Part shown: in pieces, positions 29,601-56,400 of the stretch | Layout: every line of letters starts with the position of its first letter | Position numbering within the stretch: the first letter of the stretch is position 1 | Source: Carcharhinus amblyrhynchos | Lineage: Eukaryota | DNA length: 64,000 nucleotides | Assembly: GCA_965287045.1 (NCBI GenBank) | Contig: OZ336876.1 | Coordinates: 2,976,001-3,040,000, forward strand | Reading direction: 5' to 3' | Translations under genes and position numbers: made by a program | Notes under the pieces: generated by a model | What the model was told of the DNA's origin: nothing | The model's input: only the letters and a program-made list of their open reading frames with translations | Databases searched by the model: none

Positions 29601-32600
29601 ATCGTTTTGATACGCCAAATAGATTTACAAAATGATTTCTAAATTGAATCGCTGTCGCCAATCTACTGGCTTCTGTTAAAACGGAGGGACGGGGGTGGTT
29701 GTGTGGGGTGCGGCTGCGAAGCACCAGATACTGTTTCGGGGTGAAGGAGGCGAGATTGTTATTTTAGATTCATATGTTTATTTATAATTCCCTCCAACGC
29801 ATTGTCCCCCCGTATCTCGCCTACAGAAGTACGATTCTGTGAGTATTATTGCTGTTGGTGTTGTGGAAGATTGTGTATTCACAACCATATTCGCATCGAT
29901 ACTTGTGGCTCCATACAGTGAATTTTAAATCCAATTATCACGGAATTCATTTTAACCAGGCTCAAATCTGTTTCACAAAGTTATCCCGTGTGACCTCGAT
30001 CAAACACTTATGCTGAGAACAATTTCCCCATGGGGGGATATAACAATTCTAATTCCTGATAGCTGAACGAGTACATTGCATACAGGCAATCAAGACATTT
30101 TTTTTAAATTTGGCTTCAATCCGTAAATGAACTGTATTTCTCCTTATGAGCTATCTCTATTTTCCATGAATTAAAATGTAAATTAGAACATGTGTTTGTC
30201 ATTACACCTTCAGACGTGTATTAACTATGTATCTTTAACAATTGATACTGAAGAGCTCAACCTCATTTCACTCTTTGGAAAAGTTAAATGTAAGACTTAT
30301 TAAAACGGCAGATAAAGCTGAAATATAATCTAAATTGCACTGTCAATTTCACTTCATTTTATCGTGAGACTCATTCCATATCGACGTCGGAGATATAATC
30401 TAAATTCAACACACATGGCCTTTAGATTTGTTTTCGCTATCAGAGACAACGCAACCCATGATTGTTCTTGCAATTCTAAAACATGACAATCGAGCATCTA
30501 CGTTGCATCAAGGTGATACGACGGATTTCTTTTTGTTACATACCTCTAGTGCAGATCTGAACGGGGACGCTCTTTATGGACTGTTCCCATTGATAGGAAC
30601 GAAAAGCCAGGCATTCGCATGTGTAATTGGCCTCATATCCAGGAGCTGCATCGAAGATCAAATGTCCCACGGAAAATCCTTTGTTTACGTCTGTTTCGTA
30701 AGACACACTGTGGCTGTTGTAGAAACGTATGACTTCTATGGGAGCCTGGCAGTGACAAGTCAAGTTTATTTTCTCCCCAACGAGGAAAAACTTGAAGTGT
30801 GGATTCAGAGATAAGTTTGGTCGCGGTAAATCAGCTGAAAATACGGAAGAAAGGAAAGTTCATTTCCGAAGTAATTTAATCAATTCAAAGTATTATTTAA
30901 AATATTATTATTCATGTTCCATGCATTAATTTCAATACAATCACTCATAACAATAAGAACAGGTAAGTGCCAACAAAAGTAAATCAAAGGACAAATGTAA
31001 AGTTGTAAACAGTTTCAGAACAATGGGAAATTCTGAGTCACCTTCTCTGTCATTTGTGCAACATTTTGTTTTACTTAAAATGTGTGCAAAATAGGAGCAA
31101 ACTAATGTCTTGGTGGTTTGAGCGTTAGCAGCCCAAGTGCAATGTAAAATGTTTGATGTTTCTTTCGTTAAAACGCGAACGAAACCTGAAACTATGCGGG
31201 TTTTGCTCAACCCCCAAGTTTGCTACAATGGTACAGTTGTTTTCAGACAATTCAACTCCTTACTAAAATTGCATTAAGAGATCCTCACCGGATATTCGGT
31301 CTCCGACCAACATATGGAGATTAACTGCGAAAAATAAGTGCAAAAAGTGAGCAGAGTAGCAATGCTGCAATGATATCCAGTACAATCCATGAGTTCTTTC
31401 AATCTGGATTGGGGCAAGACAAGAATTGGTGATGGTATAGGAACAATTTGGGAAGAAGTAGAACGCCTCTTCAGTCATTGTGTCAGCTCAGTGATTTACT
31501 TGCATCGTGCTTTATTTGCTTGTCAATTCGATGTCCTCAACTTGAACATGTATGTACATGTATACACATCAATAGTATCGTTCCAAGTCAGTGCAACATT
31601 ACAGCATCATATAATTATACATTCCTAATTGAGTTTCATTAGGCATCTATTTAGTGTATTGGCTGCCAAAAACGTTGAAAGTCAATACATGATTTGCGTC
31701 CATTATGCTGTGCTTTCCCATGCGAAACATGAGTGCTGTCTGTAAACTTTATAAGTCATATTATACTAAATAAACATTAGACCATGCTTTTGTAATCGGG
31801 CAACAAATTTTATCTAATTGGGCACACAAAATGGAAGCAAACTAAAGCTATCCTCAGAGCTCTCCACTCAAATCACAAAGTAATAGACACTGATCAGTAG
31901 GCAAGAGCATGCTTGTAGAATGCAAATGAGAGCTAGCACATAAGGGAATTTGGACAGGGTGGCACCTACAGGAACTAAATTAAAGAACATATCGCCACCC
32001 CATCAAAATCAGCACTTCTAAACCAGTCAAACAACCCATGGAGACGCCTAAAATTAACACAGTTAAGGAAGCGTCCCTGGCCCCTCAAAACTCTTGAGAT
32101 CAATAACGCACCTATGGTTAAAACCCCAGAGATTCTAGACCATTGATAACCAACCAGACCAAGACGATTAACACACACTTAAAACAATAGCTCCAACACT
32201 CGAAAACATCGAAACAGGATGGCTGAAGTCAAATACTATAAATAAAGGATTAGCATTTGAAACGCGAAGTTCAGGTATAGCTGTAGCCCGTTGTGGGGGA
32301 GTCTTCAGAGCACTTTCAGGACAGTCAGATTGTATGTCCTGACCGTGCTTCTCCGTCGACGTAAAAGAAAATAAAGCTGTGCCGTTATTGGACTTCACCC
32401 TGAGTCCGTAGTCGTCGTTTCGACCACTCGCGCTATCACTTTAATCCCAAAATGAAACTATTTAGTAATTTCGTATAACTAATTTATTCACACTTGATGT
32501 TTCCATGCCCATTACCCGCTTTTCCTTTACAATGCTAAGTGTATCTTCCAAATCAGCTTGATCCCATCTTGCTTTGATGTGGTCCTCAACAAATTTGTTT

Positions 32601-53400: not shown

Positions 53401-56400
53401 CATCTACGTTGCATCAAGGTGATACGACGGATTTATTTTTGTTACATACCTCTAATGGTATCTAACTCCCGGCCTTCATGCTGCTAGATTACAGAGCACC
53501 CTAAAACTCAACGTTTACTTTTGCTTCTTTTTTACGCCTATTCATTCCAATTAGTTGCCAACCAGAAAGATGAAAAAATGAAAGTGCTCTCCGTTTTGAT
53601 ACGTCAAATAGATTTACAAAATGATTTCAAAATTGTATCGCTGTCGCCAATCTACAGGCTGCTGTTAACGCGGAGGGACGGGGGTGGTTGTGCGGGGAGC
53701 GGCTGCGAAGCACTAGATGCTGTTTCGGGGTGAAGGAGGCGAGATTGTTATTTTAGAATCATATCTTTATTTATAATTTCCTCCAACTCATTGTCCCCCC
53801 GTATCTCGCCTACAAAAGTACGGTTCTGTGAGTATTATTGCTGTTGGTGTTGTGGAAGATTGTGTATTCACAACCATATTCGGATCGACACTTGTGGCTC
53901 CATACAGTAAATTTTAAATCCATGTATCACGGAATTCATTTTAACCAGGCTCAAATCTGTTTCGCAAAATTATCCCGTGTGACCTCGATTAAGCACTTGT
54001 GCTGAGAACAATTTCCCCATGGACGGACAGAACAATTCGAATTCCTGATAGCTGAACGAGTGCATTGCATGCAGGCAATCAAGTCGTTCTTTTTTTTCAA
54101 AATTTTGCTTCAATCCGTAAATGAACTGTACTTCTCCTGATGAGCTATCTCTATTTTCCATGCATTAAAATGGAAATTAAAACATGTGTTTGTCATTACA
54201 CCTTCAGACGTGTATTAACTATGTATCTTTAACAATTGATACTGAAGAGCTCAACCTCATTTCACTCTTTGGAAAAGTTAAATGTAAGACTTATTAAAAC
54301 GGCAGATAAAGGTGAAATATAATCTGAATTGCACTCTCAATTTCACTTCATTGTATCGCGAGACTCATTCCATATCGACGTCGGAGATATAATCCAAATT
54401 CAACGCACGTGGCCTTTAGATTTGTTGTCGCTATCAGAGACAACGCAACCCATGATAGTTCTTGCAATTCTAAAACATGACAATCGAGCATTTACGTTGC
54501 ATCAAGGTGATACGACGGATTTCTTTTTACATACCTCTAATGCAGATCTGAACGGGGAAGCTCTTTGTGGAATATTCCCATTGAGAGGAACGAAGAGCCA
54601 GGCATTCGCATGTGTAATTGTCTTCATATCCAAGAGCTGCATCGAAGATCAAATGTGCCACGGAAAATCCTTTGTTTACTTCTGCCTGGGAAAACCTAGT
54701 GCGGCTGTTGTAGAAATGTATACGTTCTATGGGAGCCTGGCAGTGACAAGTCAAGTTTATTTTCTCCCCAACGAGGAAAAACTTGAAGTGTGGATTCAGA
54801 GATAAGTTTGGTCGCGGTAAATCAGCTGAAACTACGGAAGAAAGGAAAGTTCATTTCCGAAGTAATTTAATCAATTCAAAGTATTATTTAAAATATTATT
54901 ATTCATGTTCCATGCATTAATTTCAATATAATCACTCATAACTATAAGAACAGGTAAGTGCCAACAAAAGTAAATCAAAGGACAACTGTAAAGTTGTAAA
55001 GAGTTTTAGAACAATGGGAAATCATGAATCACCTTCTCTGTCATTTGTGCAACATTTAGTTTTGCTTAAAATGTTTGCAAAATAGGAGCAAACTAATGTC
55101 TTGGTGGTTTGAGCATTAACAGCCCAAGTACAATATAAAACGTTTGATGTTTCTTTCGTTAAAACGCTAACGAAACCTGAAACTATGCGGCTTTTGCTCA
55201 ACCCCCCAAGTTTGCTACAATGATACAGTTGTTTTCAGACAATTCAACTGCTTACTAAAATTGCATTAAGAAATCCTCACCGGATATTCGGTCTCCGACC
55301 AACATATGGAGATTAACTGCGAAAAATAAATGCAAAAAGTGAGCAGAGTAGCAATGCTGCAATGATATCTAGTACAACCCATGAGTTCTTGCAATCTGGA
55401 TTGGGGCAAGACAAGAATTGGTGATGGTATAGGAACAATTTGGGAAGCAGTAGAACGCCTCTTCAGTCATTGTGTCAGCTCAGTGACTTACTTGCATCGT
55501 GCTTTATTTGCTTTTCAATTCGATGTCCTCAACTTGAACATATATATGCATGTATACACATCAGTAGTATCGTTCGAAGTCAGTGCAACATCACAGCATC
55601 ATATAATTATACATTCCTAATTGAGTTTCATTAGGCATCTATTTAGTGTATTGGCTGTCAAAAACGTTGAAAGTCAATACATGATTTGCGTCCATTATGC
55701 TGTGCTTTTCCATGCGAAACATGAGTGCTGTCTGTAAACTTTATAAGTCATATTACACTAAATAAACAAAAGACCGTGCTTTTGTTATCGGACAACAAAT
55801 TTTATGAAATTGGGCACACAAAATGGAAGCAAACTAAATCTATCCTCAGAGCTCTCCACTGAAATCACAAAGTAACAGACACTGATCAGTAGGCAAGAGC
55901 ATGCTTTTAGAATGCAAATGAGAGATAGCGCATAAGAGAATTTGGACAGGATGGCATGTACAGGAACTAAATTAAAGAACTCATCTCCATCCCATCAAAA
56001 TTAGCACTTCTAAACCAGTCAAACAACCCATGGAGACACCTAAAATTAACACAGTTAAGGAAGCGTCCCTGGCCCCTCAAAACTCGAGATCAATAACACA
56101 CCTATGGTTCAAACCCCAGAGATTCTAGACCATTGATATTCACACTCGATGTTTCCATGCCCATTACCCGCTTTTCCTTTATAATTCTAAGTGTATCTTC
56201 CAAATGAACTTGATCCTATCTTGCTTTGATGTGGTCCTCAACAAATTTGTTTTGGAATTTCAAATACCAAACACACTGAACTTCTCCGTACACTCGGTGT
56301 CCCCAATTTTAAAGAAGTCTGATTACAATTTATAATGAAACATAACTTCATTTTAGATCAAATGAGTCTCTGATTTCATGTAATACCCTCTATTATGATA

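Follow-up and report, generated by a model that had tools for sequence, protein, structure and literature searches.

Signs of diversifying selection in the outer immunoglobulin domain of candidate paired receptors of the shark Carcharhinus amblyrhynchos

A window of 64,000 nucleotides from the shark Carcharhinus amblyrhynchos (contig OZ336876.1, positions 2,976,001 to 3,040,000; positions below are those of the window unless a contig is named) carries on its minus strand two neighbouring receptor genes, A and B, with similar outer (D1) and inner (D2) immunoglobulin (Ig) domains. Comparison of these genes with a third paralog, C, which lies just outside the window, supports diversifying selection on D1: the signal is strong when paralog C is included, passes the controls and is seen in D1 and not in D2. 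We consider it likely on the whole that A and B are an inhibitory/activating pair of a shark cluster resembling the leukocyte receptor complex (LRC), and that about one-fifth of their D1 codons, mostly in strands C, C', F and G, show a statistical signal of diversifying selection, probably because a changing ligand is bound by that face. The features on which this explanation is built are:

30544..30834, minus strand: outer Ig domain (D1) of gene A, 96 codons long, bearing the putatively selected sites
30689..30712, minus strand: gene A codons 41-48, hypervariable block (C-C' turn and strand C'), with 10 differences to B in one 24-nt window
54535..54825, minus strand: gene B Ig domain D1, with its hypervariable block at 54680-54703

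Selection on the outer domain

The D1 exons of A (30834-30544) and B (54825-54535) are 291 nt each and align without gaps. The counts given by an earlier, sequence-only reading were reproduced exactly: there are 25 nucleotide differences, by which 20 of the 96 codons differ in the phase-1 exon frame, 19 by replacement and one (GAG/GAA) by a silent change only. This 19:1 ratio overstates the case, because about three-quarters of all sites are replacement sites and two further silent steps are hidden inside multi-hit codons; Nei-Gojobori counting gave 22 replacement and 3 silent differences over 212 and 76 sites, respectively. The two proteins are 80% identical in D1 and 83% in D2. Residues 41-48 read HSVSYETD in A and RTRFSQAE in B, which changes their charge from -2 to +1. 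The proposed shift from an acidic to a basic surface thus holds locally but was rejected for the surface as a whole, since residues 75-89 stay at +1; D1 in total goes from -1 to +1. The suggestion of a higher divergence in the exon than in the introns beside it was likewise borne out in part. Its divergence of 8.6% exceeds that of the nearest introns (151/2828, 5.3%; Fisher p 0.02, and p 0.002 for replacement sites only), but is barely above that of the whole duplicated unit (977/12,640, 7.7%) and below that of the intron after D2 (11.5%).

Site models, a check suggested by the same reading, were fitted to the DNA of A, B and C only, using a star tree and our own F1x4 code. For D1, model M0 gave an omega of 3.3 (likelihood ratio test statistic, LRT, 7.64, p 0.006), and the comparison of M1a with M2a gave an LRT of 26.5 (p ~2e-6), with omega2 ~20 on 19% of the codons. 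The M7/M8 and M8a/M8 comparisons gave 26.7 and 26.5. The site LRT was still 23.2 when double and triple hits were allowed and 19.1 after codons 41-48 had been dropped; taken in pairs, it was 17.3 for A-C, 16.7 for B-C and 5.6 for A-B. All controls remained below the three-way value. D2, which served as a negative control, showed omega 0.75-0.76 and a three-way LRT of 5.2; 58 pseudo-codon windows from introns and flanks of the three paralogs (one 42-nt stalk exon included) reached a maximum of 6.8, with two of the 58 above 5.99; and 100 runs simulated under M1a did not exceed 8.2. Three different residues are found at ten D1 codons (43, 44, 45, 48, 56, 77, 80, 84, 89 and 95), against at most eight in 990 overlapping control windows, and sites with three bases make up 6 of 288 in D1 and 30 of 9,580 in the control (p 3e-4). 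Besides these six sites, private D1 changes number 11 in A, 8 in B and 18 in C. Between A and its counterpart in Mustelus asterias, 58 of 96 residues are identical in D1 and 83 of 102 in D2.

Contigs from other samples were also compared. Those used against A came from run X5 alone, of four runs, and were phased by depth, the phase being inferred and one contig having a depth below 5. Over codons 31-61 the three X5 contigs showed 10/3, 7/1 and 15/0 replacement/silent codons relative to A. They brought 11 new residues, 10 of which fall at the 18 of 31 codons that were already variable. Run X4, an independent sample, contained contigs with B-like and C-like cores; no contig in it was identical to the core of A, a gap that proves nothing. 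Contigs identical to A and B were present in run X1, which is possibly the source sample and was therefore excluded as support. For the stretch 30455-30801, a contig of length 437 with 40 differences was found in both X1 and X5, which belong to different studies; the two runs may have an allele lineage or a source in common.

Several observations weigh against selection as the explanation. Pairwise dN/dS of A and B was 2.2-2.8 and not significantly above 1 (p 0.06-0.15), and likelihood analysis of the pair gave an LRT of 3.18 for omega = 1 and of 5.63 (2 df) for the site model. The word extreme, applied to this pair in the sequence-only reading, is therefore an overstatement, and its claim of diversifying selection on one face of D1 is supported once paralog C is added. 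At the divergence of the whole unit about 16 replacement differences would be expected and 22 were seen. Significance depends on paralog C, whose D2 is broken by a 4-nt deletion and a lost donor; a long-dead C would be expected to dilute the signal with neutral changes and not to inflate it. Under M2a, 80% of the D1 codons were placed at omega 1 and no class was clearly constrained. Recombination is evident and can inflate site tests. Within codons 34-96 the three-residue sites were not significantly confined to the C-C' and F-G segments (p 0.13, the segment being defined post hoc), and recent paralog sets from three other sharks showed no clear bias towards D1, with 11/10, 3/1 and 5/1 variable positions in D1/D2.

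The variable face and its possible explanations

AlphaFold models were obtained for D1 of A (predicted local distance difference test score, pLDDT, 91) and for the Mustelus protein, and their strand assignments agree: C 34-39, C' 42-48, E 55-61, F 68-78 and G 81-84. In C2 domains, strands C, C', F and G form one sheet. The variable sites map mainly to these four strands. All eight residues of the block 41-48 do differ, as had been noticed, but the block covers the C-C' turn and strand C' and stops short of strand E, to which it had been extended. The C-C' and F-G segments, 38 residues in all, hold 16 of the 19 A-B changes (p 0.006 within codons 34-96, again for a segment defined post hoc). The favoured explanation would work as follows. 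A would brake leukocytes via SHP-1/2 on seeing a self ligand, and B would signal via FcR-gamma on seeing a pathogen's mimic of that ligand or a variant of it. The scaffold may be kept common, and variants shuffled, by gene conversion and unequal crossing-over, while selection would keep the binding face different between the two.

It is possible, and we put it forward tentatively, that selection does act but has a polymorphic host ligand as its driver, such as MHC (major histocompatibility complex) class I or an Ig constant region, as for KIR, and not mimicry by pathogens; only the driver would then differ. Positions aligned with the HLA-contact residues 36 and 42 of LILR are among those of the variable face. 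Residue 36 of the shark D1 aligns with LILR Arg36, which together with Lys42 and Tyr76 contacts HLA alpha-3 (PMC3084784; this and the other papers given by PMC number, except PMC2413239, are cited for excerpts of their text), and we regard the match as a positional parallel and no evidence of a ligand. For CHIR, the hypervariable sites have been placed close to a putative interface with MHC (PMC1458963). On the other side, the LILR contact is made with the conserved alpha-3 domain, which by itself would call for no diversification (PMC1458963).

The genes are probable members of the LRC Ig-like receptor family. Among 18 sequence matches of D2 in the PDB, 16 were CHIR, PIR or LILR, the best being CHIR-AB1. 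The full-length search returned LILR in six of seven matches, but FCRL5 was top by summed domains, and the D1 matches in the PDB were weak, with FCRL5 and Fc-epsilon-RI alpha the best (E 0.01). The nearest atlas clusters included IGSF1-like, KIR3DX1 and A1BG, but also FCRL2. The leader mini-exon has 36 nt in A, B and C. A second leader exon of 36 nt is typical of LRC receptors, although a literature search for a source found none. In FcR and FCRL genes the mini-exon has 21 nt (PMC2413239). In activating LRC receptors the transmembrane (TM) segment carries the motif NxxR as well as an acidic residue on the C-terminal side (PMC6557307); the Arg is present in B and C and a Glu in B, but the Asn is replaced by Thr in B and by Ser in C, so the strict motif is absent. 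The genome contains a TM exon of FcR-gamma (C189:322662-322745, best match FcR-gamma, E 1e-11) and, separately, a CD3-zeta exon on C15. LRC markers comprise the blocks TTYH1-LENG8 and TSEN34...CNOT3 (PMC6557307). On contig C7, which bears the window (at C7:2.98-3.04 Mb), TTYH1 (4.14-4.17 Mb), LENG8 (4.115 Mb) and TSEN34 (4.066 Mb) lie within ~100 kb of each other (C7:4.066-4.169 Mb), 0.7-0.8 Mb past the last Ig match. CNOT3 lies apart on C35: the block that flanks the LRC in mammals is split differently here and the synteny is partial. A search of the genome for the marker PRPF31 found nothing.

These findings bear on a doubtful alternative, that the genes are of the FcR-like (FCRL/LITR) type or an independent shark expansion that came to lie near LRC markers by chance; selection may then hold, and the term shark LRC would be wrong. 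The FCRL5 and Fc-epsilon-RI alpha matches fit it, as do CNOT3 on another contig and the TM sequence TLVR in place of NxxR, a TM type shared by Xenopus FCRLs (PMC6557307). The D2 matches, the length of the mini-exon and the three linked markers speak against it.

Gene conversion is likely to act on the conserved 5' third of D1. The tract in question is:

30734..30937, minus strand: likely A-B gene-conversion tract, 1 difference in ~204 nt, covering ~100 nt of intron and codons 1-33

The initial ~100 nt of the exon had been described as identical, and indeed the first mismatch is at offset 101; they belong to this tract, which reaches into the intron. No other 200 nt in the alignment of 12,640 sites are as homogeneous (p 0.001 by permutation; local 0.008), paralog C differs from both A and B across it, and the tract stops at codon 34, where the variation starts. 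One X5 contig is B-like over codons 34-44 and A-like over 45-48, switching at codon 45. Import of the hypervariable block as a single tract from a third paralog, the refutation foreseen for selection, was not observed: private changes are spread over all three lineages and hence the block is not one imported tract. Paralog C was rejected as the single-tract donor, as its own block is a third, different one.

We consider it unlikely that a conversion mosaic combined with relaxed constraint accounts for D1. In such a mosaic the flanks and the 5' third would have been homogenised, the rest of D1 would be older and near-neutral, and recombination among unseen alleles would mimic repeated hits. Divergence along the unit does range from ~5% to 11.5%, and the near-identical tract, the switching X5 contig and the non-significant A-B test all agree with a mosaic. 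However, introns of the same history never came near the D1 statistic, silent divergence in D1 is low (3/76 sites), D2 has an omega of 0.75, and many codons carry three or four residues, beyond what shuffling alone creates. A local mutational hotspot or an assembly error is very improbable: A and B share none of the three bases of codon 34, but a multi-nucleotide or CpG artefact was rejected by the multi-hit LRT of 23.2 and by just 2 of the 25 differences being of CpG type, and the B-like and C-like cores in the independent sample X4 speak against an assembly error.

Genes A and B, paralog C and the surrounding cluster

Gene A was mapped by tblastn with the Mustelus asterias protein XP_078069600.1 (376 aa), a match of the D2 search. 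Its 11 coding exons are each preceded by AG, the ten internal exons have GT donors, and spliced together they give an open frame of 376 aa. The predicted protein consists of a leader (31 + 36 nt), D1, D2, a stalk, an uncharged TM segment and a tail with two ITIMs (immunoreceptor tyrosine-based inhibitory motifs), VTYASL and VTYASV. Besides D1, its parts are:

35227..35257, minus strand: first leader exon, 31 coding nt from the ATG on (located with the Mustelus protein by tblastn; GT donor)
31289..31324, minus strand: 36-nt leader mini-exon, identical in sequence to that of gene B (AG/GT)
28708..29013, minus strand: Ig domain D2, the negative control (omega 0.75-0.76); best PDB sequence matches CHIR-AB1, PIR-B and LILRB2
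27798..27839, minus strand: stalk exon, 42 nt; second copy near 26535-26579 with a GC donor
23759..23860, minus strand: transmembrane exon, uncharged helix core
16631..18014, minus strand: cytoplasmic exons 18014-17987, 17821-17769 and 16668-16631
13410..13535, minus strand: cytoplasmic exon with ITIM VTYASL
11589..11666, minus strand: final exon, with the stop and ITIM VTYASV

Gene B shares its front end with A, and its frame is open up to the TM exon, which reads YYQPETLVRL...IIEH; its last exon was not located. Its parts in the window, besides D1, are:

58927..58957, minus strand: leader exon 1, coding part
55281..55316, minus strand: 36-nt leader mini-exon (AG/GT)
52381..54542, no strand: tandem 1.08-kb duplication in the D1-D2 intron, with the D1 donor site repeated; copies 5.6% apart
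51613..51918, minus strand: Ig domain D2, open
49417..50735, minus strand: stalk exons 50735-50694 and 49458-49417
47579..47687, minus strand: transmembrane exon; Arg on the N-terminal side (ETLVRL), Glu on the C-terminal side

From the position of the two genes side by side, their similar ectodomains and their opposite predicted tails (two ITIMs in A, a TM Arg in B), A and B are likely to be an inhibitory/activating receptor pair. The 42-nt stalk exons are duplicated (two in A, two in B and three in C; window 26535-27839 and 49417-50735) and could vary receptor height via splicing. For the Mustelus counterpart a TM-less isoform exists. The D1 cysteines of A are at 26, 28, 72 and 74; most shark relatives have further Cys residues at 30 and close to 54, which A, B, C and Mustelus lack and which may form an additional bridge to the C'-E loop. 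Retroelement fragments were seen in the window at ~790-3650, 32500-34600, 56400-58300 and 60600-61020, which we take to be LTR-retrotransposon-like (LTR, long terminal repeat) at the left end and LINE-like (LINE, long interspersed nuclear element) within introns.

Paralog C (gene ~C7:3.047-3.068 Mb, D1 at C7:3056935-3057222, 74% identical) resembles A as far as the stalk region and B in the TM region. Its D1, leader and TM exons look intact. It is likely to be a recombinant, with an A-like front, a B-like tail and a broken D2. Since both D exons are phase 1, skipping of D2 could yield a one-domain activating receptor. Beyond it lies a fourth gene, 46% identical, whose TM exon (C7:3095867-3095971) carries His at the position of the Arg in B; this position is His or Gln in several relatives. 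The search of the genome with D2 gave at least 59 matches (150 scored of 198 candidates), at least 48 of them on C7:0.70-3.35 Mb and in both orientations, forming a large receptor cluster without annotation, and smaller groups of related Ig exons were found on C47, C108 and C29. Relatives also occur in Heterodontus, Scyliorhinus, Cetorhinus, Pristiophorus and Narcine, automatically named IGSF1-like, TARM1-like or uncharacterized among the 10 of 132 matches looked up. The search for homologs among longer proteins found none with D1, and 2 of 47 candidates with D2.

Known receptor systems and the origin of the complex

Paired receptors with diversifying selection on D1 are already known from LILRB3/LILRA6 and CHIR; the novelty lies in the shark lineage. 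Human LILRB3 and LILRA6 are also adjacent inhibitory (ITIM) and activating genes with like ectodomains, mostly replacement variation, patchwork exchange and variation at D1 positions 36 and 38 (PMC3894450). They differ in having four Ig domains, not two; in the shark pair D1 is 80% identical. The chicken CHIR, with one or two C2 Ig domains, make up a large cluster of the LRC in which activating and inhibitory members occur together with pseudogenes, and they show hypervariable regions with a replacement excess (PMC1458963); one of them, CHIR-AB1, is the best PDB match of the shark D2. In CHIR, however, hypervariable regions occur in both domains, while the shark signal is in D1, and D1 of the shark contains an additional pair of Cys (28 and 74). 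The uncharacterized Mustelus asterias LOC144493891 (XP_078069600.1) shares the 376-aa layout, two ITIM-like motifs and a D2 close to that of A, but has the much less similar D1 reported above and no function on record. The CEACAM receptors of Xenopus belong to another Ig family, with an N-terminal V-type domain. Like the shark genes they are paired, and have been proposed as pathogen decoys outside mammals (PMC5112662). FcR-like receptors (FCRL5, Xenopus XFL, teleost LITR) share C2 Ig domains, paired signalling types and a weak D1 similarity; they differ by their 21-nt mini-exon (PMC2413239), and the shark cluster is flanked by LRC markers.

According to the text excerpted from Akula et al. 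2014, neither C2-only LRC homologs nor FcR-gamma were found in sharks, and their origin was placed at the base of bony fish (PMC4016189). Guselnikov and Taranin 2019 called fish LRC counterparts uncertain (PMC6557307). A reconstruction puts the LRC region on a proto-gnathostome microchromosome, in a passage that describes no shark receptors (PMC8302630). The excerpts of PMC6795676, PMC9652883 and PMC11372145 do not mention shark LRC genes, and that of PMC6182393 added nothing. Literature searches, with subscription papers and supplements outside their coverage, returned no description of a shark LRC or of this cluster. A 2021 paper in Immunogenetics reportedly deals with LRC-like regions in fish and may pre-empt part of the novelty.

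The locus, its markers and the FcR-gamma adaptor argue for an LRC origin older than the base of bony fish. We lean slightly towards a true multi-megabase shark LRC with FcR-gamma-coupled activating and ITIM-bearing pairs, one of which is being diversified on the face of D1 with which LILRs engage MHC class I. If this is true, the LRC and the paired-receptor arms race would go back to the jawed-vertebrate ancestor, and the genes of the cluster would be candidate self-recognition receptors of shark natural killer or myeloid cells. The ten three-residue codons provide a short residue list for ligand finding, by which the question of such receptors becomes testable.

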